DNA from: Candidatus Woesearchaeota archaeon
Lineage (GTDB): Archaea; Nanobdellota; Nanobdellia; SCGC-AAA011-G17; GW2011-AR18
Direction of reading: 5' to 3'
Length of the DNA: 64,000 nt
Assembly (NCBI GenBank): GCA_018302765.1
Contig: JAGVZG010000004.1
Location: 16,878-80,877, forward strand
Part shown: piece by piece, positions 393 through 64,000 of the stretch
Position numbering within the stretch: the first letter of the stretch is position 1
Layout: each line of letters opens with the position of its first letter
The notes under the pieces: model-generated
Databases searched by the model: none
What the model was told of the DNA's origin: nothing
The model's input: only the letters and a program-made list of their open reading frames with translations
Made by a program: the position numbers and the translations under genes

Positions 393-1259
393 ATGTCAAA
401 TGTAACTTTAGAGAATTATAAAAAAGTTCAGGCAGATATTTCTCAATTTAAAACAAGATTGAATGAGATAAATGAAAAGAAAGAGTACTGGTTCAAGAAA
501 AAAGAGGATCTTAAGAAAGAACTAAATGAGTTGATTCAGAAAATAAAAGAAATAAAAGCAGAGAAAGACAGAAAGAATGTTGAACTGCAACAACTTAAGG
601 AACAAAGAGACAAATACAATTATGAAGTACAAAGGTTAATTAAAAATATAAGAAATCTTAATGAAGAAAAATCTAATGCTTTCAAGAAATATAACATTAA
701 GGTTGATCCTACAAAGATTCAACAGAAAATTAATGAGCTGGAAAAAAAAGTAGAAATAGAAACAAATTTTGATAAAGAAAAAAAATTAATGGAAGAAATA
801 AAGAAATTAAAAAAGGCTTATGAAGAAACAACTGAAGTAAGACAAATAGCTGAAAAAGCATACCATCTTGAAAAGGAAATAAGGGAATCAAAGAAAAAGG
901 CTGATGAATTTCATAGAAAAATACAGGAAATAACAAAAGATACTGGTTATGAAGTATTTATGGAACTTTCTAAAAAAATAACAGAATTAAAGAAAGAACA
1001 AGAAGATGCTTTCCAGAGGTTTATAGATCATAAAAATGAATATTCCAATACTAATAATGATGTAAAAAATAAAATGGAAGAATTCCAGGTTCTCAGGCTT
1101 TTGTTTAGTAAGGATAAAGAGGCTAAAAAGATAGAAAAGGAAGAAAAGGAAAAGAGCTTTATTAAAGATAAAATAAAAGCTGTGGAAGAAAAGTTAAAAA
1201 TTAAAAAGAAATTAACTACTGAAGACATAATTGCTTTGCAAGGTTCTGGAACAGAATAA
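393..1259 (+). CDS. Archaeal coiled-coil protein (COG1340-like)
   Basis: 288 aa, K/E-rich heptad pattern throughout, C-terminal KKLTTEDIIALQ motif typical of this family. Confidence 0.7.
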   Translation: MSNVTLENYKKVQADISQFKTRLNEINEKKEYWFKKKEDLKKELNELIQKIKEIKAEKDRKNVELQQLKEQRDKYNYEVQRLIKNIRNLNEEKSNAFKKYNIKVDPTKIQQKINELEKKVEIETNFDKEKKLMEEIKKLKKAYEETTEVRQIAEKAYHLEKEIRESKKKADEFHRKIQEITKDTGYEVFMELSKKITELKKEQEDAFQRFIDHKNEYSNTNNDVKNKMEEFQVLRLLFSKDKEAKKIEKEEKEKSFIKDKIKAVEEKLKIKKKLTTEDIIALQGSGTE

Positions 1260-1330
1260 TTTTTGTGATTAGGTATGCAGCAAGTAAAATTAGTATAAAA
1301 CATTATAAATTGAAAATTTATTTGAATTTT

Positions 1331-1933
1331 ATGCAAACGTTTAAAATAGATGAAAAGGAATATTCTCTAAGTGATTTACTTAGCAGAAAAAGTGAAAAAT
1401 TGGTTAGATTTGAGACTATTGAGTTTTTAGATAATATTTGGGAAACAGTTTCAGATAATGATAAATCACTATTAAATCAAGAACAAGGTTTAATTGAAAA
1501 AATTCTTGTACCTTGATTTTTCAATGAAACTACAAGACATAATGCTTATTTTAATGATGCATTTTATTTAACAAATAGATTTGGAATTCAAGATTATTAT
1601 AAAAGAAAAGCTGGAGTTGTTGCTTTATGGAATAGAAGACATAAATATTTTAGATGGATTACTCACCATGATTTTGATAATTCTAAATTGTTAAATTCTA
1701 TGGGATTAATATCTAGATCTGATGCAGAAGGTTTTGGAAAAAATCAAGGAAATTATGTTTTTATGCCTAGTAAAATTTATAGCGCTTTAATAAGAAATTT
1801 GGGATTAACACAAGAAGAATTATGTTCTGCACACTTGATATGCCAATCAGTTTGTGAAAAAGAAAGAACAAATAACAAAAATTCTGGTATGTATGATGGT
1901 TTGCCTGTTGCTGATTATCCTATTTATTTTTAG
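1331..1933 (+). pseudogene. Hypothetical gene interrupted by an in-frame TGA at 1514-1516
   Basis: Track ORFs 1265..1516 and 1688..1933 share a frame; the 57 codons between them contain no stop; likely ATG at 1331. Confidence 0.6.
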
Positions 1934-8934: not shown

Positions 8935-9075
8935 AGCGCGGGGAGGGAAATTCGTAAACTTTTTTGTTAAGGAAGTTTAGTTCGAACCCCCAATCTGTTG
9001 CTGTCTTCTTTATTATAGCTATTAGTTCATAATAGCAAACTGCAGGCAACTGCCTTGCCGTTGGGCCACCCGCGC
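8935..9075 (-). tRNA. tRNA-Cys(GCA) with two introns: 37/38 (9003-9039, 37 nt) and 59/60 (8949-8980, 32 nt)
   Basis: Spliced 72-nt cloverleaf GCGCGGG TG GCCC AACGGCA AGGC A GTTGC CTGCAGA GCAAC AGATT GGGGG TTCGAAT CCCTC CCCGCGC T; U73; the T-loop intron has a perfect BHB (TTCG/CGAA helix). Confidence 0.93.
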
Positions 9076-12399: not shown

Positions 12400-12566
12400 T
12401 GGCGGGCCCGACGAGAATTTCATGAACGTTTCTTTCAAATAAAAGTTCTTTTGAACTCGCGACCCTCTGCTAGCTTCCATATAGCTAGAAGGCAGATGCG
12501 CTATTAGCCCACCTTCTTTCGTGAACATTTCTTCCTAAGAAAGGTTCCAGGCTGCGCTACGGGCCC
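12400..12566 (-). tRNA. tRNA-Arg(TCT) with three introns: 19/20 (12505-12546, 42 nt), 37/38 (12472-12485, 14 nt) and 59/60 (12417-12449, 33 nt); CCA encoded
   Basis: Spliced 78 nt GGGCCCG TA GCGC AGCCTGGATA GCGC A TCTGC CTTCTAA GCAGA GGGTC GCGAG TTCAAAT CTCGT CGGGCCC G CCA; BHB helices GCCT/GGGC, CTTC/GAAG, TTCA/TGAA. Confidence 0.93.
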
Positions 12567-43803: not shown

Positions 43804-43915
43804 TGCCCCGCGCGAGATTTGAACTCGCGTCAGAGCCTTTCTCCTTTTGCTTAAGCTTTTTCTAAAGGCTTATTTCGAGAGGGCTCTATCCTTGACCGGG
43901 CTAGACGAGCGGGGC
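43804..43915 (-). tRNA. tRNA-Glu(CTC) with one 37/38 intron (43839-43875, 37 nt)
   Basis: Spliced 75 nt GCCCCGC TC GTCT AGCCCGGTCAA GGAT A GAGCC CTCTCGA GGCTC TGAC GCGAG TTCAAAT CTCGC GCGGGGC A; BHB central helix CTCT/GGAG. Confidence 0.92.
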
Positions 43916-45761: not shown

Positions 45762-45866
45762 CGGGCCCGACGGGATTCGAACCCGCGGCCATCTGATTAA
45801 GAGTCAGATGCTTTCGGCAATTTTGAATTTTATTCTGAAATTACTACCAAGCTGAGCTACGGGCCC
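45762..45866 (-). tRNA. tRNA-Lys(CTT) with one D-arm intron at about 22/23 (45813-45843, 31 nt)
   Basis: Spliced 74 nt GGGCCCG TA GCTC AGCTTGGTA GAGC A TCTGA CTCTTAA TCAGA TGGCC GCGGG TTCGAAT CCCGT CGGGCCC G; helix TGGT/GCCG, inner stem AATTT/AAATT. Confidence 0.92.
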
Positions 45867-49110: not shown

Positions 49111-49452
49111 TTACTTCCTGCCCTGTGTTAGCTTTCTAGCTTCAATTTCAGTTTCTCTTAACATTAAAATATCGCCTATTCTTATAGGGCCTTTGACATT
49201 ACGCCTTAAAATACGCTTAGAGTCTCTTCCTTCGAGAACCTGGCATCTAACTTGAATTGCTTCGCCCCTCATGCCTGTTCTTCCAACTATTTCTTCTACT
49301 TGTGCAGGAACTGCATGCGTAAAAAGAGAAGAAGCTTTTTCTTGCTTTCTTTCAGTTATTTTTTGCTGCTCTTTTTGCCTTTTTGAATCTTCAGATTTTT
49401 CAGTTTGTTGTTTATCTTCAACTTGTTTTTTTTTAGTTTCTTTTTCAACCAT
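49111..49452 (-). CDS. rps28e: 30S ribosomal protein S28e with charged N-terminal extension
   Basis: [21 protein letters not shown]...[26 protein letters not shown]. Confidence 0.95.
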
Positions 49453-49453
49453 T

Positions 49454-49807
49454 TTAAGCAGATTTTAACTTAGAAGTTAATTCTTTTATAGCTTGCTTAG
49501 CTTCTCCTTCCTGAATAATTGCTATGGAAGCTGTTGGAATATTTAGTCCTGCTATTTCTCCTAATTCTTCTCTTTTAGGAACAGGAACAATAGGTATTCC
49601 TTTCTCTTCACAAAGAGCTGGCAAATGCATAATTATCTCCTTAGGATTTGTATCTTGGGCTACTAAAACCAGTTTAGCAGTACCTCTTTCTATAGATTTA
49701 GTAACTTCATTCGTGCCTTTTTTTATTTTTCCAGTTTTTTTAACTATTTCAAGAATTTCATAAGCCTTTTCTACTATTTCTTTAGGAACGTTAGCATTTA
49801 TATCCAT
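49454..49807 (-). CDS. rpl7ae: 50S ribosomal protein L7Ae
   Basis: [30 protein letters not shown]. Confidence 0.96.
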
Positions 49808-54011: not shown

Positions 54012-54674
54012 TTAGAAATCTACTAAAGTCTTCTGATTCTTGGATTTTTTACCTTCTGAATATTCTTTATATGAAGACCAAGAATGCCTGAATATCTCTG
54101 GATATTTATTCCAATTTTCTTTTAAAAATTTCTTTGTACTGGGATCAGATGGGTAGCCAGAATTGAAATCTATTCCTATTTTTTTCTTAATTAATTCTAT
54201 TTCTTTGTCTCTAGTTACTTTTGCCAATATTGAACCGGCACCAACAATCAAGTAATCACGATCTGCATGGTGCTCACATCTTAAGCTTGTTTTTATTTTT
54301 ATTTTATTTTCAAGAAAGTTTGCAAAAGCTTTTTTATTGTTGCTTGGGCAATCAATTATAACTTGATCTGGCCTTAATGCATTAATAATTTCAACCATTT
54401 TGTCCGCTTCTAACCAATTTAAGTTTGAATCTTCTGAAAGAACTGCTTTGTCAATTTCTTCTGGCGGTATTTTAATTATTTTATACCTTTTGACAAATTT
54501 TATTAATTTTGCATAAATTTGCTCTCTTTGTTGTGGCGTTAATAACTTAGAATCTTTTACACCTAATTGTTTTAATTTTGGCAGATCTTTCTCTTCAATT
54601 ACAATTCCAGCCATTACCATTGGACCAATGACAGGACCTCGACCTGCATCATCGATACCACATATTGTTGCCAT
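54012..54674 (-). CDS. rnhB: Ribonuclease HII
   Basis: GIDDAGRGPVIGPMV, GVKDSKLL, ILAKVTRD, SGYPSDP, C-terminal PIP box QKTLVDF. Confidence 0.95.
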   Translation of the reverse strand: MATICGIDDAGRGPVIGPMVMAGIVIEEKDLPKLKQLGVKDSKLLTPQQREQIYAKLIKFVKRYKIIKIPPEEIDKAVLSEDSNLNWLEADKMVEIINALRPDQVIIDCPSNNKKAFANFLENKIKIKTSLRCEHHADRDYLIVGAGSILAKVTRDKEIELIKKKIGIDFNSGYPSDPSTKKFLKENWNKYPEIFRHSWSSYKEYSEGKKSKNQKTLVDF

Positions 54675-54765
54675 TAGATAAATAACAATTTATTAGTTAA
54701 TAAACATTATTATCTATTTTTTAATAACTCTACTAATAAAATAATTCAATAACTTTCTATAGGAA

Positions 54766-54917
54766 TTAATCTTTCATTAATTCTCTTTCTTTCATTAGCT
54801 GTTGATATAAATCAACTAGTGCTCTTCTATCTTTCCCTGATAGTATTCTTTTACCCGCCCTAGCTTCTATTAAAGCACTCTTATTTGATTAACTGCTTGT
54901 TCAAATGTTTCTGTCAT
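54766..54917 (-). pseudogene. Small frameshifted ORF (about 50 aa)
   Basis: MTETFEQAVNQI then, after a one-base shift, SALIEARAGKRILSGKDRRALVDLYQQLMKERELMKD*. Confidence 0.35.
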
Positions 54918-55100
54918 ATAAACCACCACATTTTCTGTATAAATTATATATTTTATTTTTGTATGAACTTATTTTTAAATATTTGTATATGAATATATAT
55001 TGAATTTGGCAATATGTTTAGATGATTTTTATTTATAATTAAATAGTAGTAACTATAGAAATATTTATAAATTAATTATTAATTTCATTTCTATATTAAA

Positions 55101-55961
55101 ATGGCAATAATTTTACCAGGCTATAATGCTGCATTTGAAGATAAAGTTTATTGTAGAGATAGAACTGTTGATACTCAAAGAGGACATGTAGTAGTTAGTG
55201 AAATTGTTATTCTTGAAAGATATACAGAACCAACTGAAGATGGAGTTGTAAATTATCTAAGAGAAGTTGCAAGAAAAGTAGATCCTATAGCTTCATTAGA
55301 GTTGCCTGATAGCACTAAATTTGAAGGAAAGTCACCTTTAGAGGAATTCGTAATGAAATTACCTAAATCTGTAAGAATGCATTTAATATCTGGACGTAAT
55401 GAGTACTTGAATTTTGTTAGAAAAAATACATCTGCAAGAGCTCTTTCAGAAGGAGAAAATCCCAATAATTTTGTACAAGCTATGTATGGTTTACTCACTC
55501 CAGTAATTATTAGTAATAATTTTGAAATGATAAATGATATGAAACATAAGTGGTATGATGCCGCACTGTCAAATAAAAAATTTCTAGAACACAGTTTAGG
55601 ATATAAACTTCAAGTAGACATTTTGTTATATGATGAAGTTTTGCCTTCTAAAATTGAGATGAATATATTATTAAAACATAAAGTTTCTGTTTCTAGAAGC
55701 CTTATAGTACAAGGGACTGCACCTGAAGATGGCGATGTTGAAAGACTTATTGAATTACTATATTCAGGATTAGATACTCCTGATAAAATTGAATATTTAG
55801 AAGATCATTCAAAATACAGACTTGAAGAAGCCTCAATTCAACCAGTTATTAATTTATTAGATGCTGCTGCTAGACAACAAGCTCAAGCTCAAACGTTATT
55901 AGACCGTCTAAAAAGTGGCGCTGGCAGAGGGTCTGGCGGGCATGGCGGTCTTATTTGCTAG
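55101..55961 (+). CDS. Hypothetical protein
   Basis: 286-aa ORF with a Gly-rich C-terminus. Confidence 0.6.
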   Translation: MAIILPGYNAAFEDKVYCRDRTVDTQRGHVVVSEIVILERYTEPTEDGVVNYLREVARKVDPIASLELPDSTKFEGKSPLEEFVMKLPKSVRMHLISGRNEYLNFVRKNTSARALSEGENPNNFVQAMYGLLTPVIISNNFEMINDMKHKWYDAALSNKKFLEHSLGYKLQVDILLYDEVLPSKIEMNILLKHKVSVSRSLIVQGTAPEDGDVERLIELLYSGLDTPDKIEYLEDHSKYRLEEASIQPVINLLDAAARQQAQAQTLLDRLKSGAGRGSGGHGGLIC

Positions 55962-56198
55962 ATATTTCTATTTGTATATAATATAATATATATTTCATAA
56001 TTTGGGTGTGGACGACAAGACAATAAGCTTGCACATAAGACTATTAAAATAAATTGTCTTAATTATTTTATGGAAGAAAATATATATTTTTTGCAATTAC
56101 TAAAAAAGAAATTAGTGTTTAAGCTTGTTTTTGAAAAATCTCATTTTAGCTACAAGTTAAAATTTCTAATGAAAATATTTTAATATTTAAAAATTATA

Positions 56199-56435
56199 GA
56201 GGATAGCGGGGGCTTCCCGAAATGACATATTGTCAATTTTCTTTGGATTTGAACCAACGACCCATCCGTGCTAAAGCAATTCGGGTATCGCAAAGAGTGC
56301 GTACTCTTTATGAGCCTTCCGCAGTAAGACATTTGTCGTTACTTCGACGGACATTTAGGTTTTTTATAAAAAACTCCTAGCTGTCCTACCCGTATAGACT
56401 CAAGGTTCGCTATGGTATCAGCTTCCCCTATCCTC
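56199..56435 (-). repeat. Inverted repeat bracketing the tRNA-iMet precursor
   Basis: Leader GAGGATAG-GGG (56435-56425) is complementary to CCC-G-CTATCCTC (56210-56199). Confidence 0.8.
56204..56411 (-). tRNA. Initiator tRNA-Met(CAT) with six introns: 4/5 (56392-56407), 20a/21 (56354-56373), 29/30 (56317-56344), 37/38 (56287-56308), 44/45 (56263-56279), 64/65 (56213-56242)
   Basis: Seven exons (4, 18, 9, 8, 7, 20, 9 nt) give AGCGGGG TA GGAC AGCTAGGAGT GTCC G TCGGG CTCATAA CCCGA AGGTC GTTGG TTCAAAT CCAAC CCCCGCT A (75 nt): A1-U72 pair, G29G30G31/C39C40C41; each junction falls two nt into a BHB-type bulge. Confidence 0.92.
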
Positions 56436-56460
56436 TGCATCACAAAAGATAATAAAACTT

Positions 56461-56468
56461 CTTATAAA
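56461..56468 (-). promoter_or_regulatory. TATA box of tRNA-iMet, displaced upstream
   Basis: TTTATAAG at -57..-50 from mature +1; the -30..-23 window reads GATGCAGA. Confidence 0.6.
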
Positions 56469-56520
56469 GCTTTTGGAGAATAACCGTGAAATATTTAAGA
56501 ATTTCTGACATTGCAATATT

Positions 56521-57015
56521 ATGCAAGAAGGCAGTATTTTGATACCTATATGGACTAATAAGAGAGAAATAATAGGCTATAAAAAACTTGAAGACATCAA
56601 TGAAAGAATAGATACTCTAAATTTAGCATATGTGATTTTATTTGACAGATATGGTATGATCTTTATTACAAAACCAAAAAATTCTTTATGGGAAGGAAAA
56701 TGGTCAAGTTCTGCTGCAACTACTGTAAGAAAAGATGAGACATCTATTGAAGCAGCAAGAAGGGCATTATCTAATGATCTTGGAGCTTATAGATGTGATT
56801 TAATATTTGTAAAGGAAAATTATTACGAACTAAATGGAATAAAAAGAGTTTTATCAATTTTTTATGCCAAAACCAATGACATTGTAAAAGTTAATTCTGA
56901 TGACATAGCTGAAAGTAAGTGGGTGAATTTAATAGATATTAAACAAATGATGACTAATGGAGAATTTAATCCTGTTTTTCTTGTTGCATTTGAAAACATA
57001 AAAGGCTTCTTGTAA
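56521..57015 (+). CDS. NUDIX fold protein (IDI-like, degenerate Nudix box)
   Basis: GKWSSSAATTVRKDETSIEAARRALSNDLG; VNSDDIAESKWV. Confidence 0.7.
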   Translation: MQEGSILIPIWTNKREIIGYKKLEDINERIDTLNLAYVILFDRYGMIFITKPKNSLWEGKWSSSAATTVRKDETSIEAARRALSNDLGAYRCDLIFVKENYYELNGIKRVLSIFYAKTNDIVKVNSDDIAESKWVNLIDIKQMMTNGEFNPVFLVAFENIKGFL

Positions 57016-57069
57016 TAAAAAGAAATATCATAGCAAGACTTTTAAATTTATAGCTTTGAACATATATTT

Positions 57070-57696
57070 ATGAAAAATGGTGCTGATTTTAAAGAGCTTA
57101 AAGAGGTAGAAAAGAACATCTTAAAAGGAATAAAACTTAATGATTGTTTTTCTAGTATAAAGACTGTTGCTGCCTTTGACATAGCTTACAAAGATAAAAC
57201 TTATTTTTGTGTTGGTGTTGTTATTGATATAGAAACTAAAGAAGAAGTTGAAAAAAAAGAGGTTAATGGAGAAGAAGTAATACCTTATTCACCCAGCCTT
57301 GCTGCTTTTAGAGAAGGGCCTGCAATAATTGACGCTTATAGGGCTTTAGAAAACAAACCTGATATCTTAATTGTCAAGGGTGAAGGGGCTGTAAAACTAA
57401 ACAGAGTGGGATTAGCCAGCTATGTTGGTGTAATTCTTAATAAACCCTGCATTGGTGTAGCAAAGGAATTAATGCATGGAAAACTTGAAGAAGATAAAAT
57501 TATTTTTGAAAATGAGTTAAAAGGCATTGCAATAAAAACAAAACAATTTGCAAATCCTGTTTATGTAACACCAGGACATAACGTAAGCTTGAAAACTTCT
57601 GTTGAAATTGTGAAAAAATTAAGCATTGATTCATACAAATTGCCTATTCCATTGCATTTAGCTCATAAATATGTGAACAAATTAAAGAAAAAATAG
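57070..57696 (+). CDS. nfi: Endonuclease V family protein
   Basis: AAFDIAY, PYSPSLAAFREGP, GLASYVGV, IGVAK, PVYVTPGH, KLPIPLHLAH; the second catalytic Asp position reads LIVKG. Confidence 0.85.
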   Translation: MKNGADFKELKEVEKNILKGIKLNDCFSSIKTVAAFDIAYKDKTYFCVGVVIDIETKEEVEKKEVNGEEVIPYSPSLAAFREGPAIIDAYRALENKPDILIVKGEGAVKLNRVGLASYVGVILNKPCIGVAKELMHGKLEEDKIIFENELKGIAIKTKQFANPVYVTPGHNVSLKTSVEIVKKLSIDSYKLPIPLHLAHKYVNKLKKK

Positions 57697-57701
57697 AAAA
57701 C

Positions 57702-58415
57702 TTAGTTAATTTTCAAGTAAGATTCCAGACCACAACTTCTTATGTATTCTTGTTCGCAGTTAAATTCCTGCGCAGCTATATCTCCTACAGCTACCAAACT
57801 ATTAAAATTTCTAATGTAAATATCAGAACCTAAACAAATAAATGTTTTTCTTACAGCTAAAACTGGAACTCGGCTTGAGCTATAAGCAGGATTTAATGGA
57901 TTTCCAATAATAAAAACTATATCTCCCAATGATAAATCTTTAACAATTTCATTAATGTGATTTGGGTTAGAATTAATTTCATTATAATTAACCCCTAAGT
58001 CTGAGAATATAAATGTGCCTCTTGGTCTTTTACCATCTTCCTCAGCTTCAGCTAATGATAATTTTAAGGCTGAAAATCTATCTTCATATTTTGTTAGTTC
58101 TTTTGTTTCTTTAAATCCGAATCCAGATACATTATAATTTGTTATAGATGCTGTATGTGCACTATATTGATTAAGTACGTCAATTAAACTTGGTTTTTCT
58201 TCGCCTTTTATTTTTCCGAAAATTTCATTGCAAAATGAGGATAAATTTTTATTATCCTGCCTTTCTAAAGCAAATGCTGTGATTATTTCAGCAGTTTGAT
58301 TAAGCCTAAAAAAAGCACATTTACCAACAGGAAGATCACTTACCTTTCCAATCAAACCTTCAATAACTGGAAATTCATAAAGCAGAAGCAAAAAAGTTGT
58401 GTGATTAGAAGCCAT
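57702..58415 (-). CDS. Hypothetical protein
   Basis: 237-aa ORF. Confidence 0.55.
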   Translation of the reverse strand: MASNHTTFLLLLYEFPVIEGLIGKVSDLPVGKCAFFRLNQTAEIITAFALERQDNKNLSSFCNEIFGKIKGEEKPSLIDVLNQYSAHTASITNYNVSGFGFKETKELTKYEDRFSALKLSLAEAEEDGKRPRGTFIFSDLGVNYNEINSNPNHINEIVKDLSLGDIVFIIGNPLNPAYSSSRVPVLAVRKTFICLGSDIYIRNFNSLVAVGDIAAQEFNCEQEYIRSCGLESYLKIN

Positions 58416-58527
58416 CTTTATAATTTTTTATTATGGTATAATCTTATTTTATTTAAATATTATTATAGTTGAAAATAAATAATAGAATTAATCATTCCTT
58501 GCATGCTTCACATTAACTCAATTTTTA

Positions 58528-58869
58528 TCAGGAGGAAACTGTAATTTGAATTTTATTTTTGTCAATTGGTTGTACTACTACCTCTTTTCCCTTCTTCAGT
58601 TTCATGAAATTAACAATTGCCCTAGAAAATCTTACGTCTAATGCAGTACCTGAAGTTCCTATTTTTGTTTTAGCAGCTAAGCCCCAAACACCTTGCTGTT
58701 TTGCCTTATTTTCTATTTTTAGAGATTCTTTGCCTTCAAAAATAGTTTCTCCGCAATTAGAGCAAACCCAAGCATAAAATTTTCCTAGATTTATGCCTAC
58801 TAAAATATAATCTATTTTCTTCTTAATAAATTTCCCTTTCCTGCATTCATCACAAACTTCGCCTTTCAT
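58528..58869 (-). CDS. YgiT/MqsA-type zinc finger fused to an AbrB-like domain (putative antitoxin)
   Basis: CDEC...CSNCGETIF; C-terminal TKIGTSGTALDVRF...LKKGKEVVV. Confidence 0.75.
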   Translation of the reverse strand: MKGEVCDECRKGKFIKKKIDYILVGINLGKFYAWVCSNCGETIFEGKESLKIENKAKQQGVWGLAAKTKIGTSGTALDVRFSRAIVNFMKLKKGKEVVVQPIDKNKIQITVSS

Positions 58870-58870
58870 T

Positions 58871-59083
58871 TTATTTATTTATAAAAACTGTTTTTATTTT
58901 ATAATTATCTCCTATTTTCTTATATGCTACTGAAAAGTAAGTGTAAACAGCTAAAAATCCATCTGTTTGTTTAAACACTGAGCCTCTTGTTATAGCTTCT
59001 GCAACTTGTTTTATTGACACTCCTTCTAAAATCATCTTATCTTGTGCATGCCTAGTTAATATTAAATCCTCCTCTTTTACCAT
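58871..59083 (-). CDS. DUF4258 family protein (putative RNase toxin)
   Basis: LTRHAQDKM..EGVS...V.EAI..G, C-terminal IKTVF; directly upstream of the Zn-finger gene. Confidence 0.75.
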   Translation of the reverse strand: MVKEEDLILTRHAQDKMILEGVSIKQVAEAITRGSVFKQTDGFLAVYTYFSVAYKKIGDNYKIKTVFINK

Positions 59084-59181
59084 ACATATTCGAATTTATA
59101 AGTATATACTTATATTTAAAGTTTTTTGAATTAGTCTTTTGCAATGCTTACATTTAATCTCTAATTCCATACATATATTAG

Positions 59182-59239
59182 GTACCTACTATTTATATAT
59201 CTTTCAGTACCTAATTAACTACTTTGTAGTTGGTACCTA
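59182..59239 (+). promoter_or_regulatory. Three GTACCTA repeats and an AACTAC-TTT-GTAGTT palindrome in a divergent promoter region
   Basis: Copies at 59182, 59207 and 59233; palindrome at 59217-59231. Confidence 0.45.
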
Positions 59240-59273
59240 AAAGTTTAAATATAAGTCCATTCTTCTTTAAATT

Positions 59274-59407
59274 ATGAAACTACAAAAACAACTTTCTAGA
59301 AAGGTTTGGTTATACCTCCAAATATGATAGAAGAATTAAAGTGGAGAGAAGGGCAAGAATTAGAAGCTGAAGTTAAGGAAAATAAACTGATAGTTAAAAA
59401 ACCTTAA
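59274..59407 (+). pseudogene. AbrB/MazE-like regulator remnant
   Basis: MKLQKQLSRKV, then after a frameshift VIPPNMIEELKWREGQELEAEVKENKLIVKKP*; the middle strand appears deleted. Confidence 0.65.
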
Positions 59408-59489
59408 ATTTTTTATTCAAAATTCCAGATGTTTACTTTACAGCTCATATTTTGGATAATTATTTAAACTTAATTTCTTTCAAAATCTT

Positions 59490-60170
59490 ATGAGATTTAA
59501 GATTAACACTGACAGTAATTATGTAAAATACAAAATCAATGGATTCTTATCTACATCAAACAGAGAAATAAAAGACATAAGCAAGGCTTGGTTTGCTATT
59601 TCATTGGCTTTTGGTATTGTTCTTGGTGGTCTAACTTTAAAATTCTTTACTGCTTTTATTATTTCAGCAATAGCTGTTGGCCTGGGATTTCTGCTTCATG
59701 AATTAAGCCATAAATTTTTTGCACAAAGGTATGGTTACAAAGCAGAATTTAGAAGCTTTGATGAAATGCTGTTTCTGGCTGTAATAATGAGTTTCTTTGG
59801 TTTTGTTATTGCTGCTCCTGGAGCTGTAATGATATTCAGCAATGTTCTTGACAAAAGAAAAAACGGAATAATTTCTGTTGCTGGACCTGCAATGAATATT
59901 ATTTTAGCTTTGATATTTCTACTGCTTGTGGTTTTTTTAACTGGAGGCTTTAACAGTACTATTAATTTATTAAATTCGTCAATACACAATCTTATAGAAT
60001 CATCTTTATTAAAAGCAATTTTAGCAATAGGATTTTTGGTTAACAGCTGGCTTGCTTTATTCAACATGATTCCATTATGGCTTTTTGATGGAGCTAAAGT
60101 ATTTAGATGGAATAAATTTGTATACTTTGCAGTTTTGATAGTTGCTATTGTTTTTGTATTTGGAATATAG
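59490..60170 (+). CDS. M50 family (site-2) membrane metalloprotease
   Basis: LHELSHK, ISVAGPAMN, FNMIPLWLFDG. Confidence 0.9.
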   Translation: MRFKINTDSNYVKYKINGFLSTSNREIKDISKAWFAISLAFGIVLGGLTLKFFTAFIISAIAVGLGFLLHELSHKFFAQRYGYKAEFRSFDEMLFLAVIMSFFGFVIAAPGAVMIFSNVLDKRKNGIISVAGPAMNIILALIFLLLVVFLTGGFNSTINLLNSSIHNLIESSLLKAILAIGFLVNSWLALFNMIPLWLFDGAKVFRWNKFVYFAVLIVAIVFVFGI

Positions 60171-60287
60171 AAAAATATTAAAGTATTTGTTAAAACTCAT
60201 GTTCATGAATAAAAATGGTTTTGATGAAAGAATTGTTTCATATGAATATATACATAATATAAATAATAAGTATATACATATCGAAAA

Positions 60288-60627
60288 ATGAATCATATTA
60301 ACTAAAAAGATATAATGGCTTTTAATTAAGAATTTGATGTAGGCAATCTACGTAATGAATCAAGTCTTGATTTTGCTTTAAGTTATGCTTATAGGACAGA
60401 GAACTGGACAAAGGCATTGGCATATTTAACTAGGGCAATATTAATTGATCATGTCTTTGAGGAAGGAAATAAAAGAACTGTAGCTTTATTAATAAAGAGC
60501 TATGCCGAATATGAAGACCGTAAAACATATAATGATAAAATAATAATACTAATTAAAGATGTAATTTTAAGAAAAAATTATAAGTATTAGGAAAATTGAG
60601 GAAATGATCAAAGATGCAATCAAATAA
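60288..60627 (+). pseudogene. Fic/Doc family toxin pseudogene
   Basis: DHVFEEGNKRT Fic-like motif; in-frame TAA at 60303 and 60327 plus a frameshift near 60580; the restored C-terminus overlaps the next gene. Confidence 0.75.
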
Positions 60628-60847
60628 ACTTATAAAAATAGCAAAAAAAGTAAAAATGAAAAACAAAGAACTATTTGATACTTTAATTGAATTTGAAAAA
60701 ACAAAAAAAATAAGGAACAAAACAAGATTAAATTTTACTATAGACAGAACCGTAGCATCTAAATTTAAAAAATTCTGCAGAGAAAAAGGTTATAATATGA
60801 GTGCAATAATAGAAAAAGCAATGAAAAAAGAAATGGGTGAAAAATAA
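60614..60847 (+). CDS. Small ribbon-helix-helix-like protein (putative antitoxin)
   Basis: RLNFTIDRTVASKFKKFCREKGYNMSAIIEKAM. Confidence 0.65.
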   Translation: MQSNKLIKIAKKVKMKNKELFDTLIEFEKTKKIRNKTRLNFTIDRTVASKFKKFCREKGYNMSAIIEKAMKKEMGEK

Positions 60848-60857
60848 GAGGTGTAAA

Positions 60858-61358
60858 ATGGTTGTAAATAAAGAACAAAGAATGGGTGTTTTTGTTGACG
60901 TGCAGAATATGTATTACAGCGCAAGGGCTTTGTATAATTCAAAAGTAAATTTTAAGGAAATTCTTAGAGAAGCTGTAAATGGAAGAAAATTAGTTAGAGC
61001 CATTGCGTATGGTGTAAGAGCTGGAGAAAAAGATGAGGAGAGTTTCTTTAAAGCTTTAGACGGCATAGGTTTTGAAGTTAAATTGAAAGATCTGCAGGTT
61101 TTTTATGGCGGAAATAAAAAGGCAGACTGGGATGTTGGCTTGGCCATAGACTCTATTGAATTAGCTCCTAAACTAGACGTTGTTGTTTTGGCTTCTGGTG
61201 ATGGAGATTATATTCCTTTGGTCGAACATTTGAAAAGGGCTTTAGGATGCAGAGTGGAAGTTTTGGCTTTTGGCAGAAGCTGCAGCGGAAAATTAAAAGA
61301 AGCTTGTGATGAATTTGTAGATATGGACAAGAGTAAGAAATTTGTCTTTACTAAATAA
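60858..61358 (+). CDS. NYN domain (LabA/DUF88) ribonuclease-like protein
   Basis: VFVDVQNMY, KKADWDVGLAID, LASGDGDYIPLV; GAGGTG ribosome-binding site. Confidence 0.92.
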   Translation: MVVNKEQRMGVFVDVQNMYYSARALYNSKVNFKEILREAVNGRKLVRAIAYGVRAGEKDEESFFKALDGIGFEVKLKDLQVFYGGNKKADWDVGLAIDSIELAPKLDVVVLASGDGDYIPLVEHLKRALGCRVEVLAFGRSCSGKLKEACDEFVDMDKSKKFVFTK

Positions 61359-61878
61359 TGTGAATAAAATTACTTTTTCAAGCGATAAAATAGGACCTAC
61401 TTATAAAGATTTTATAGAAACTGCTAAATTAGCAGAAAGTTATTTTAAAACTAAACAAAATAAAACTCAAATAGAAACTTCTAGAAAAAATAGTTTGTGG
61501 GCTTATAAAAAAATTCCAAACAGCTTAAATATAATAAGAAATGATAGAAAGATAATTGGTTTTGTATGGATTATTCCTTGTAGTAAAAGTTTAATGAATA
61601 AATTTTTAAGGAAAAAAATAAGTGAGGCAAAATTATTCAAAAAATTACAAGAACAAAAAATTGATGAGGATAATTTTGAGTCATTATATTTATGCTCTTC
61701 ATTTATTATTCCTGAATACAGACGAAAAGGTCTTGCTACTAAAGCTGCAATAAAAACTATTAGAAAACTAACACAGAAAAGAAAGATTAAACCAATATTA
61801 TTTTCTTGGCCTTATTCGAAAGAAGGGAAACTTACTATTTTAAAAGCTAAAAATACTATTAATATAAAGCTAAGATAA
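61342..61878 (+). CDS. GNAT-like fold protein
   Basis: IIGFVWII, FIIPEYRRKGLATK acetyl-CoA-binding-like motif; true start uncertain (GTG at 61360 possible). Confidence 0.55.
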   Translation: MSLLNNVNKITFSSDKIGPTYKDFIETAKLAESYFKTKQNKTQIETSRKNSLWAYKKIPNSLNIIRNDRKIIGFVWIIPCSKSLMNKFLRKKISEAKLFKKLQEQKIDEDNFESLYLCSSFIIPEYRRKGLATKAAIKTIRKLTQKRKIKPILFSWPYSKEGKLTILKAKNTINIKLR

Positions 61879-61934
61879 AATGCCAAAAGAAATTTCATAT
61901 GGTGCAGTAATATTTAGAAGAGAAGAAAAACATA
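61872..61934 (+). repeat. 63-bp perfect direct repeat, copy 1 (truncated duplicate of the Nudix gene 5' end)
   Basis: AAGATAAAATGCC...GAAAAACATA is identical to 62616-62678; it reads MPKEISYGAVIFRREEKHTK*. Confidence 0.95.
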
Positions 61935-61981
61935 CTAAATAGATATATTTATATACTTATTTTATATATATTTATATTAAT

Positions 61982-62266
61982 ATGGCATCAGAAACAATAC
62001 AAATAAACAAAGAAAAAGTAAAACATTCCCCTACGCTAAACACTGTCCTTATGGTAGAGGAAGTTTTGAAAAATGTCGGGGAGCTAATTACGGTTGCAGA
62101 ATTAAAAAGAAAACTTCCAAAAAAAGTAATGCACCAAACACTAATAGAAATTCTTGATTACTTGCAATTTAGTGGAAAAATAATAATTGGGACTAAAGGA
62201 ATTTTGTGGATATTTACAGAAAGAAAAGAATTAGAAGCAATGATTAATAGAGGAACAGAATTATGA
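61982..62266 (+). CDS. Winged-helix protein (putative antitoxin)
   Basis: HSPTLNTVLMVEE...LKRKLPKKVMHQTL..ILDYL..SGKI; stop overlaps the toxin ATG. Confidence 0.65.
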   Translation: MASETIQINKEKVKHSPTLNTVLMVEEVLKNVGELITVAELKRKLPKKVMHQTLIEILDYLQFSGKIIIGTKGILWIFTERKELEAMINRGTEL

Positions 62267-62622
62267 ACAAACCTGTAAGGGTGATAATCGTAGATGAAGC
62301 AGAAATAGAGTTCAAAAAACTGAATGAAATTGTTGGTCAACAAATTCGAGAAGGAAAAGATAACAGTGAGGAAATACAACTATTAAAATCTATAAAACAA
62401 AAAGTAGAATTTGTCAAAGCTAATCCTTTTTACGGAGATAATATAACTAAGAAATTAATACCAAATAAATACAATGTTCAAAATTTATGGAGAGTTGAAC
62501 TTACTCATTTTTGGAGGATGTTATACACAATAAAAGGAGACCAAATAGAAATAATTTGTTTTGTTCTTGATATAATTGATCATAATAAATATAATAAAGT
62601 ATTTGGATATAATAAAAGATAA
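62263..62622 (+). CDS. RelE/ParE-like toxin
   Basis: NLWRVELTHFWRMLYTI...VLDIIDHNKYNKVFGY. Confidence 0.65.
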   Translation: MNKPVRVIIVDEAEIEFKKLNEIVGQQIREGKDNSEEIQLLKSIKQKVEFVKANPFYGDNITKKLIPNKYNVQNLWRVELTHFWRMLYTIKGDQIEIICFVLDIIDHNKYNKVFGYNKR

Positions 62623-62678
62623 AATGCCAAAAGAAATTTCATATGGTGCAGTAATATTTAGAAGAGAAGAAAAACATA
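62616..62678 (+). repeat. 63-bp perfect direct repeat, copy 2 (start of the intact Nudix gene)
   Basis: Identical to 61872-61934. Confidence 0.95.
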
Positions 62679-63070
62679 TTTTGTATTTACTTCTTTACAG
62701 AAAAGCGCATGAACATTACAAAGAGATGTGGGATTTTCCAAGGGGCTTGATTGAAAAGGGAGAAACTCCTGAAGAAGACATTGTAAGGGAAGTTAAAGAA
62801 GAAACAGGAATTGAAAATATAAAATTCATTAAGGGGCTTAAAGAAACTGTAAAATGGTTTTACAAAAAAGAAGGCCAAACAGTGTTCAAAGAAGCAACTT
62901 ATTATCTAGCCGAAACAAATACTAAAGAAATTAAATTAAGTTTTGAGCATGATGATTTTAAATGGTGCAGCTATGAAGAAGCTCTTAAATTAATAAAATT
63001 CAGCAATACAAAAAGTGTTTTAAAAAAAGCCAATGAATTCATGACTGGTGGATTAAATAGGTTTGTTTAG
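62624..63070 (+). CDS. NUDIX hydrolase (Ap4A hydrolase-like)
   Basis: SYGAVIFR, WDFPRGLIEKGETPEEDIVREVKEETG Nudix box, LSFEHDDFKW. Confidence 0.9.
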   Translation: MPKEISYGAVIFRREEKHILYLLLYRKAHEHYKEMWDFPRGLIEKGETPEEDIVREVKEETGIENIKFIKGLKETVKWFYKKEGQTVFKEATYYLAETNTKEIKLSFEHDDFKWCSYEEALKLIKFSNTKSVLKKANEFMTGGLNRFV

Positions 63071-63599
63071 AGAAATATTTAAATTGTTATTTCTTCATAA
63101 ATATATAATGGGTATAGACGACCTGGTTGATTTAGACTGTGAAGAACTATTAGTAAGATTAAATTCTATTGGAAACCTTAGAGAAAAAAATAGTATTATT
63201 GTTGCAATTGGTAATTATAAATGTGACGCAGCTTATGAAACCTTAAGAAATCATGTTAGAACTAATTTAAGACATCAAGCATTAATTGCTATGGGTAAAA
63301 TAAATTACAATAAGACAATAGGTGTATTTGTTGATATTCTTAGAGTTGAAAATAAAGGAAAAGCAGTGAATAGGGCTATAGAAACATTGTCTTATGTTTT
63401 AGCGAATAGAATTGAGTTAACAGGAATTGATAAATTTATAGAAGAATTGGGGATTATTTTACCAAAATATTTAGATTCAGGTAATTATTTAGATGGTAAA
63501 GTCAAAAGAATAATGTCCAGGGCATTAAGAGATAGTGCAAAAATATTAAAAGTGGAGTCTGTATACTTAGCTATGGCTAGAGACACACTTTACTCCTAA
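63063..63599 (+). CDS. Hypothetical alpha-helical (HEAT-repeat-like) protein
   Basis: IIVAIGNY...ALIAMGKI pattern. Confidence 0.5.
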   Translation: MFREIFKLLFLHKYIMGIDDLVDLDCEELLVRLNSIGNLREKNSIIVAIGNYKCDAAYETLRNHVRTNLRHQALIAMGKINYNKTIGVFVDILRVENKGKAVNRAIETLSYVLANRIELTGIDKFIEELGIILPKYLDSGNYLDGKVKRIMSRALRDSAKILKVESVYLAMARDTLYS

Positions 63600-64000
63600 A
63601 TTTTTTTACACTCAATCGTGTTGTCTTTAATTTCAAACCTTACATCTAAGAATTTTTGTATTGTTTCTATATTTGTTTTCATATGGTCTGTAACTTGTGA
63701 AATTTTTATTTTATCATGACCTCTTATTGCCATATAAATTAAAAGCTGGTCTGCTGTAAAATGATCTACATTTGCGCCTGACTTCATTCCTCCCAGTAAT
63801 TTAACAGCGCATTCTTTTCCTATGTCCTCTGCTTTTCTAGATTTTTCCCCAAGAATAGTCATTCCAACTTTATGGTCTTCATAACTATAATTTGCATGAA
63901 CATAACATCCTGGACTTAATGTTTCTACATATCTTTCTTCAGTATTTAAGTTGTGAGTAATTGGAAAATTTAGCTTAAAACCCTTAATTAATCTTTTAGC
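63596..64000 (-). CDS. rtcA: RNA 3'-terminal phosphate cyclase, C-terminal part (gene runs off the window)
   Basis: LGEKSRKAEDIG, VDHFTADQLLIYMA, TDHMKTNIETIQKFL; frame open to the window edge. Confidence 0.88.
   Translation of the reverse strand, partial: AKRLIKGFKLNFPITHNLNTEERYVETLSPGCYVHANYSYEDHKVGMTILGEKSRKAEDIGKECAVKLLGGMKSGANVDHFTADQLLIYMAIRGHDKIKISQVTDHMKTNIETIQKFLDVRFEIKDNTIECKKI

Follow-up and report, generated by a model that had tools for sequence, protein, structure and literature searches.

A region on the minus strand (56411-56204) of a 64,000 nt stretch of DNA from Candidatus Woesearchaeota (DPANN), here a tiny archaeon of groundwater, the whole of which is referred to here as the window, contains an initiator tRNA (iMet) gene made up of seven exons and six introns, as read from the minus strand and aligned to intron-poor orthologues. 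This analysis concerns the 5′ leader of the gene and its relationship to the first intron, at position 4/5 of the tRNA. The spliced product is a 75 nt tRNA (AGCGGGG...TCGGGCTCATAACCCGA...CCCCGCTA), which is called as tRNA-Met(CAU) by ARAGORN, agrees with the intron-poor orthologues, and has the CAU anticodon, the A1:U72 pair, and the three G:C pairs (G29-31:C39-41) of archaeal initiators. The exons are, in order, AGCG, GGGTAGGACAGCTAGGAG, TGTCCGTCG, GGCTCATA, ACCCGAA, GGTCGTTGGTTCAAATCCAA, and CCCCCGCTA, all collinear within 208 nt; the introns are 16, 20, 28, 22, 17, and 30 nt in length and are located at 4/5, in the D-loop, and at 29/30, 37/38, 44/45, and 64/65, respectively. This structure was obtained by hand parsing and spliced alignment. 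The gene is missed by default ARAGORN, which calls no tRNA in the whole window, and by Rfam, which gives a single partial tRNA in the window.

The window is about 29 % G+C and encodes archaeal proteins, including SecD/F, RNase HII, and endonuclease V (EndoV). In the genome collection, Candidatus Woesearchaeota assemblies come closest to it (EndoV 54-75 % identical), and among these relatives the iMet gene is syntenic, between RNase HII and EndoV. Orthologues were taken from a genome scan, one metagenome pattern scan, and contigs carrying EndoV homologues. There are 11 distinct genes with a 4/5 intron (the window, L003, L012, L014, L015, L018, L019, L020, L022, L023, and L031) and seven distinct genes without it (L001, L002, L004, L005, L028, L029, and L032). 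By spliced alignment, iMet genes of this kind have between four and seven introns each; seven are present in L003, L015, L018, and L019, based on spliced alignment, and seven are also apparent by eye in L031. The spliced alignment of L022 was forced and it was excluded from the intron count. Published reviews give a maximum of three introns per archaeal tRNA gene (PMC8450103, PMC4033280). With these predicted structures, the known limit of tRNA gene fragmentation would move from three introns to six or seven.

The first intron sits after nucleotide 4, therefore the tRNA sequence alone cannot make the splice motif. Six leader bases take part in this intron's bulge-helix-bulge (BHB) motif. In the central helix (H), leader AT and A1G2 (56413-56410) pair with CTAT of the intron (56397-56394), and in the outer helix (h), leader TACC (56417-56414) pairs with G6G7U8A9 (56390-56387). 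A preliminary description of this DNA had proposed that the motif is completed by the leader through ATAG/CTAT and TACC/GGTA, and both pairings are present on the minus strand. Helix H is flanked by two 3 nt bulges on opposite strands, CG/a and ac/G, where the stroke marks the cut, and both flanking helices are there, h (TACC/GGTA) being built with leader bases and h′ being 2-3 bp. This is a strict hBHBh′ arrangement and the cuts fall at 4/5. The cuts were placed by the rule that each follows the second nucleotide of a bulge, a rule validated with L001, whose canonical 37/38 intron has CTCA paired with TGAG. From its motif, the 4/5 intron is an archaeal hBHBh′ tRNA intron, the predicted substrate of the splicing endonuclease and RtcB. 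The motifs of the D-loop and 29/30 introns of the window gene are also strict.

Comparisons between orthologues support the leader-built motif. Ten genes were aligned for the BHB pair counts (alignment A1), L031 having been found later and left out. Helix H is fully paired (4/4) in all ten, which is 100 % of cells, and helix h is fully paired (4/4) in eight (95 % of cells). Across the BHB, standard pairs occupy 93.6 % of cells, against 12-40 % when the partner columns are slid. Three pairs are changed on both sides: leader -2 with the intron, where L003 has G-C for A-U; leader -4 with tRNA nucleotide 7, where L012 has U-A for C-G; and the first pair of h′, where three genes have G-C for A-U. 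Within the window, 0.7 % of random 6-mers would fit all six of the BHB leader positions.

Further upstream, the leader is complementary to the 3′ end of the gene, forming what is referred to here as the clamp. Both the trailer and the 3′ acceptor strand are partners of leader GCAGAGGAT-AG-GGG; GAGGATAG-GGG (56435-56425) is complementary to CCC-G-CTATCCTC (56210-56199) and, as RNA, GCAGAGGAU-AG-GGG pairs with CCC-G-CUA-UCCUCU. This complementarity had also been claimed in the preliminary description, and it holds both in the sequence and in folds of the precursor. The clamp has two modules, P1 with the trailer and P2 with the 3′ acceptor strand (Table 1), and is found in the minimum-energy and centroid folds of the whole 243 nt precursor (z = -4.4). 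The real leader binds the 3′ end at -20.6 kcal/mol, which is matched by 0.02 % of random 23-mers from the window and equalled by 0.6 % of shuffled leaders. All 11 genes with a 4/5 intron have a clamp duplex of between -20 and -26 kcal/mol. P2 occurs as TAG-GGG(G), TAGCGG, and U(U)GGGG; each form has the 3′ acceptor strand as its partner, and all three depart from an exact copy of the 5′ strand. When about 300 kb were screened from promoters for further precursors with a clamp, iMet genes alone were recovered.

Table 1. Positions in the window of the features of the iMet gene and its flanks, in the direction of transcription.
Feature	Position	Strand	Remarks
Promoter: BRE-like (B recognition element) AAAAGC (56474-56469) and TATA box TTTATAA (56468-56462)	56474-56462	-	TATA at -57 to -51
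Predicted transcription start, G of GCAGAG, 30 nt past the first T of TATA	56438	-	Inferred from spacing
Leader module P1, 5′ strand, GCAGAGGAT	56438-56430	-	Partner is A73 and trailer
Leader module P2, TAGGGG, pseudo 5′-acceptor strand	56430-56425	-	Pairs with C67-C69 and C71-A73, G70 bulged out
Conserved linker AAGCTGA	56424-56418	-	Able to form hairpin GCUG:UAGC with -1 to +3
BHB 5′ strand: helix h TACC (-6 to -3) and helix H (AT and A1G2)	56417-56410	-	
Exon 1, AGCG, tRNA nt 1-4	56411-56408	-	Spliced alignment
Intron 1, AACCTTGAGTCTATAC, 16 nt, site 4/5	56407-56392	-	Holds h′ (AC..GT) and 3′ strand of H
Exon 2, nt 5-20a, begins GGGTAGG	56391-56374	-	G6-A9 (56390-56387) is 3′ strand of helix h
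Rest of gene, introns 2-6 with exons 3-6 between	56373-56213	-	Spliced alignment, ARAGORN on product
Intron 2, D-loop	56373-56354	-	
Intron 3, 29/30	56344-56317	-	
Intron 4, 37/38	56308-56287	-	
Intron 5, 44/45	56279-56263	-	
Intron 6, 64/65	56242-56213	-	
Exon 7, C65-A73, 3′ acceptor strand	56212-56204	-	Pairs with leader module P2 before splicing
A73 and trailer, TCCTCTAT, 3′ strand of P1	56204-56196	-	
T5 run, likely terminator directly past clamp	56193-56189	-	Direct sequence reading

The clamp also shows evidence of covariation. An alignment of P1 (A2), hand-anchored on the CTCT motif, has pairs in 88.9 % of cells, a share that drops to 39-58 % on sliding the columns, and five of its nine pairs are changed on both sides. 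The leader and tail duplexes of the same gene are stronger on average than non-cognate ones (permutation p about 1e-4), although with related orthologues these statistics, and those for the BHB, overstate independence and significance; the pattern is clear in qualitative terms all the same. Conservation of the complementarity in orthologues with the same intron, on which the preliminary description had staked its claim, is therefore observed, with covariation. Given conservation and covariation in 10-11 orthologues, the predicted BHB and clamp pairings are judged to be well beyond chance. These changes bear on the possibility that the leader and clamp are neutral debris from a rearrangement or partial duplication that brought the intron, the pseudo-acceptor being a decayed copy of the tRNA 5′ end. 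Such an origin would account for TAGCGG, a near copy of the 5′ acceptor strand, in the leaders of L012, L015, and L022, for a further ATAGCGGGA copy between TATA and the predicted start in L012, and for the patchy presence of the intron. Debris would not be expected to show compensatory changes in P1, h, and H, nor cognate duplexes stronger than non-cognate ones, nor an invariant register between start and clamp, and the architecture is kept in eleven lineages in which the EndoV beside iMet is only 42-67 % identical to that of the window. Neutral debris is therefore very unlikely.

The position of the promoter differs from that of other tRNA genes. The TATA box at -57 was confirmed, as were those of the four other tRNA genes in the window with which the preliminary description had contrasted it, where the first base is at -30 (Cys, 9075), -32 (Arg, 12566), -32 (Glu, 43915), and -31 (Lys, 45866). 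The distance from TATA to +1 is 30-34 nt for ordinary tRNAs and 30-32 nt in iMet genes without the 4/5 intron. This spacing is compatible with leaders of 0-3 nt, the iMet gene with a 4/5 intron being the exception. For protein-coding genes of the window, the TATA-to-ATG distance peaks sharply at 27-31 nt (28 out of 45 genes with a recognisable box), therefore the mRNAs are likely to be leaderless, with a start about 29-30 nt past the first T. In ten of the 4/5-intron genes the distance from TATA to the first clamp base (GCAGAG) is 29-32 nt. As this matches the TATA-to-ATG distance of the leaderless mRNAs, the primary transcript most likely begins at 56438, exactly the clamp base, in agreement with the start at 56436-56438 that had been predicted earlier. 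With the T-run directly after the trailer strand, the transcript would be closed end to end.

The promoter itself, CAAAAGCTTTATAA, found at -30 in orthologues without the 4/5 intron, is the same element as in the genes that have it. The window and L005 share 28 identical promoter bases (CAAAAGCTTTATAAGAAGTTTTATTATC), which are followed by 36 nt to +1 in the window and by 9 nt in L005. A TATA-like element near -30 is seen in none of the 11 genes with the 4/5 intron, and none was seen by eye inside the iMet gene. It is therefore extremely unlikely that the TATA at -57 is not functional, with transcription starting beside +1 and a relaxed endonuclease removing the 4/5 intron without leader pairing. 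The relaxed motifs of other introns in the gene, found by hand parsing, would be in keeping with an enzyme that tolerates imperfect BHBs (PMC5829648); however, H needs leader bases -2 and -1, and -2 covaries with the intron.

Leader, clamp, and promoter position follow the intron. All 11 genes with the 4/5 intron carry a clamp and a 26-31 nt leader, and their TATA lies at -56 to -62. All seven genes without it have TATA at -30 to -32 and no clamp, their upstream and 3′-end sequences forming a duplex of only +0.9 to -6.4 kcal/mol. The displaced promoter, from which the preliminary description had predicted a leader of about 25 nt, is present in 11 out of 11 genes with the 4/5 intron and in none of the seven without. 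Intron, leader, clamp, and promoter shift are thus perfectly associated across the 18 genes. In a neighbour-joining tree of EndoV, which is rough and based on a single gene, the two classes interleave, suggesting that intron and leader were lost or gained together on three or four separate occasions, a number that is indicative only.

This association also bears on whether only the six BHB-proximal leader bases serve splicing, with the clamp being a general processing or stability stem that has no role in exon retention or in the choice of conformer. Like other leader-trailer stems, it would protect the ends from exonucleases or set up cleavage by RNase P and tRNase Z. The clamp does sit at the extreme ends of the predicted transcript, and P1 persists, stacked on the acceptor stem, after in-silico splicing. 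However, none of the seven orthologues without the 4/5 intron has the clamp, including L004, L028, L029, and L032, which have three or four other introns. In addition, P2 is aimed specifically at the strand left without a partner in the BHB conformer, the 3′ acceptor strand. This explanation is considered unlikely.

Several observations weigh against a leader-built splice site held by a clamp. Helix h has a C.A mismatch in L015 and L022. The BHB is not the minimum-energy structure in nearest-neighbour folding, either locally or with RNAalifold; folding of the precursor, which had been suggested as a check, therefore recovered the clamp and did not recover the BHB as the minimum-energy structure. 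On A1, RNAalifold prefers a linker hairpin, GCUG:UAGC with U-1 A1 G2 C3, that would bury -1 to +3. Hand-anchoring of the P1 alignment and relatedness of the orthologues, mentioned above, also count here. In the hand parsing, introns 4 (37/38), 5 (44/45), and 6 (64/65) of the window gene have relaxed motifs, H being 3/4 paired, and the motif at 64/65 is without an outer helix; helix h may therefore not be a strict requirement for this lineage's endonuclease. The splicing endonuclease is probably tolerant of imperfect motifs, in line with a DPANN EndA bearing an L3 loop (PMC5829648); such loops have been linked to disrupted tRNA genes (Kaneta 2018; PMC5829648). Finally, RNase P RNA and proteins, HARP, and EndA were not found in the window and about 300 kb of related loci, which is too little sequence to conclude from. 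Neither an EndA nor an RtcB gene was identified in the window.

Taking these points into account, the leader is probably a cis-acting splicing guide and tether, its part in the BHB being held with more confidence than the tether and switch roles of the clamp. As far as sequence analysis allows, the interpretation given in the preliminary description is supported. In the proposed mechanism, iMet would be transcribed with a leader of about 27 nt having three working parts: the first 9 nt would pair with the trailer; -19 to -13 would be a deliberately imperfect copy of the 5′ acceptor strand, pairing with the 3′ acceptor strand; and -6 to -1 would, with A1G2, make up the 5′ strand of both h and H. 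The acceptor stem and the 4/5 BHB cannot form together, since each of them requires A1G2 and G6G7. P2 gives the displaced 3′ acceptor strand a partner, so the splicing-competent fold should be favoured. Transcription would begin at the first clamp base and the clamp would take the 3′ acceptor strand, leaving A1G2 and G6-A9 free for the BHB instead of the acceptor stem. The splicing endonuclease would then cut at 4/5, producing a 31 nt 5′ fragment containing only 4 nt of tRNA, which the clamp would hold until the ligase joins it to G5. The full leader gives a predicted binding energy of -13 to -22 kcal/mol between the cleaved 5′ fragment and the body of the precursor, compared with -4 to -7 kcal/mol for a 6 nt leader and -3 to -4 kcal/mol when there is none. 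As the cleaved product is predicted to be bound far better with the full leader, the clamp plausibly acts as a tether until ligation.

After ligation, the continuous AGCGGGG would displace the pseudo-strand and the real acceptor stem would form, with the outer clamp remaining stacked. In folds of mini-precursors, the unspliced form has P1 and P2, and in most genes the spliced form has the true acceptor stem, on which P1 is stacked. Such a strand-displacement switch would expose the -1/+1 junction after splicing only, and only then would the ends be open to trimming, by tRNase Z and by RNase P or an equivalent 5′ endonuclease. Removal of the leader first would destroy H and h, so splicing at 4/5 should precede 5′ maturation. 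Both the need for the leader in splicing and this order of events are suggested by the BHB geometry and the comparative data.

The enzyme that would remove the leader is also relevant. The tRNAs of this lineage may be essentially leaderless, with little or no RNase P, the iMet leader being removed by another activity, whether an endonuclease yet to be identified, an enzyme made of protein only, or a second event of the endonuclease type. The spacing of 30-34 nt for all other tRNAs, its return to 30-32 nt whenever the 4/5 intron is absent, the leaderless mRNAs, and the precedent of Nanoarchaeum equitans (PMC3491384) are consistent with this, as is a search of about 300 kb that turned up no component of RNase P, although the sequence searched is a small fraction of any genome. 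The keeping of a 27 nt leader argues that a 5′ endonuclease exists, and on inspection no second BHB cutting at -1/+1 could be constructed, either before or after 4/5 splicing, as the geometry fits no arrangement. Removal of the leader by another activity in such a lineage is therefore distinctly unlikely. That the lineage has lost or marginalised RNase P like N. equitans, iMet being the single substrate still with a long leader, is likewise rather unlikely. Were it so, an undescribed route of 5′-end maturation would be implied, and iMet would stand as an evolutionary intermediate acting in cis, in which the guide pairing required by a split tRNA gene is in place already.

Genes for ribosomal proteins S28e and L7Ae are present at 49111-49807 (minus strand); since archaeal RNase P and small ribonucleoproteins also have L7Ae as a subunit, its presence says nothing about that of RNase P. 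A hidden BHB in the leader-trailer helix, through which the precursor could be circularised as in permuted tRNAs or rRNA, was sought by inspection and rejected, there being no arrangement that the geometry fits.

Introns in the 5′ acceptor strand are known at position 3/4 in some Thermoproteales (Sugahara 2008, as cited in PMC4090602). As in the window, these are endonuclease-type introns for which the BHB geometry must recruit upstream nucleotides that are not part of the tRNA. The window case differs in being at 4/5, in an initiator tRNA, and in a DPANN lineage, and in having a leader that covaries with the intron and exon 2, a clamp, and a promoter shifted by exactly the length of the leader. 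One account describes non-canonical archaeal tRNA introns at many positions and calls the 3/4 intron an 'extreme case' (PMC4090602). Since tRNAscan-SE 2.0 adds 60 nt flanks to catch introns near the ends (PMC8450103), the use of flanking bases is implicit in the field.

The split tRNAs of N. equitans and Crenarchaeota have complementary non-tRNA extensions of 12-14 bp that hold the pieces for BHB formation and ligation (PMC4090602, PMC4033280, PMC3218864). The logic of complementary flanks holding the pieces is shared by the window iMet; however, this is one transcript, acting in cis, in which the extension has the trailer and 3′ acceptor strand, not another half, as its partner, and survives the splicing cut, so that it needs separate 5′ processing. 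Split genes have separate transcription units with their own promoters, whereas here there is a single promoter with collinear exons. In Thermofilum pendens, permuted tRNA-iMet and tRNA-Tyr genes were found through displaced promoters, at -72 and -65 (PMC3218864). Likewise, the odd promoter distance in the window, about -57, flags functional transcribed upstream sequence. Unlike the permuted genes, the window gene has no upstream 3′ half and no circular intermediate is expected; its 3′ acceptor strand is downstream, and the leader-trailer helix has single-nucleotide bulges at most and no BHB. Being collinear it is not permuted, and being a single transcript it is not split. In N. equitans, tRNAs are transcribed leaderless, from a fixed promoter-to-5′-end distance and with a purine start, and there is no RNase P (PMC3491384). 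The other tRNAs of the window and the iMet orthologues without the 4/5 intron show such a fixed promoter distance. The 4/5-intron iMet breaks the rule with its 27 nt leader.

In the literature that was accessible, no description was found of a covarying leader that builds the BHB, of a clamp onto the 3′ acceptor strand and trailer, or of an intron-linked promoter shift, the three features predicted here. The leader appears to tie together the position of the promoter, splicing, and end-trimming. If this is correct, it is a comparatively supported case of a non-tRNA flank being an integral, co-evolving part of an archaeal tRNA splice site, with promoter position evolving in lock-step with the intron. 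The built-in tether would suggest how a 4 nt exon survives endonuclease cleavage, and RNA structure alone could enforce the order of processing, splicing and then end trimming. It would also provide a mechanistic link between intron-containing and split tRNA genes, and explain why standard tRNA finders miss essential DPANN tRNAs.

A number of additional observations were made on the leader and its orthologues. The linker AAGCUGA can form a hairpin of 4-5 bp with U-1 A1 G2 C3 that competes with the BHB and with the acceptor stem, and the G-to-A linker variants of L019 and L020 retain the hairpin pairing. Pairing of the linker with CAGCU of the D-loop is not supported, since the G-to-A changes in L019 and L020 break it and improve the hairpin instead. 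A role for the acceptor copy of the leader as an alternative exon works on paper for L015 (AGCGG and GATAGG), but was rejected because it fails for the window group, where the copy is AG-GGGG, without C3. In L022 (about 1229-1440, plus strand), leader, 4/5 intron, and clamp are present and the T-arm sequence GTTGGTTCAAATCCAA is missing; this iMet could represent a pseudogene or a split gene, or the assembly could be at fault. The extra copy of the tRNA 5′ end, ATAGCGGGA, lies just past TATA in both L012 and L013, in a stretch predicted to be untranscribed, and may be a scar of the rearrangement that made the leader. The L032 gene (minus strand, around 2347) is without the 4/5 intron and leader, yet has a TTCTCT trailer like that of its clamp-bearing relative L012, which suggests secondary loss of the intron and leader.

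Besides iMet, the window has four tRNA genes on its minus strand, Cys-GCA (8935-9075), Arg-TCT (12403-12566), Glu-CTC (43804-43915), and Lys-CTT (45762-45866). Each is broken by at least one intron and goes undetected by ARAGORN at default settings; the CCA end is encoded by the Arg gene and not by the Cys, Glu, and Lys genes. Around iMet, the conserved gene order (window 54012-63862; L027-L033) is RNase HII, a variable open reading frame, iMet, EndoV, an M50 peptidase, an NYN-domain protein, in some cases a NUDIX protein, and RtcA. No usable homologues were found for the adjacent 164 aa protein. The NYN-domain protein (60837-61358) is similar to PDB 2QIP and RtcA is an RNA 3′-phosphate cyclase; the presence of an NYN nuclease and RtcA near a heavily spliced tRNA may be relevant to RNA processing.

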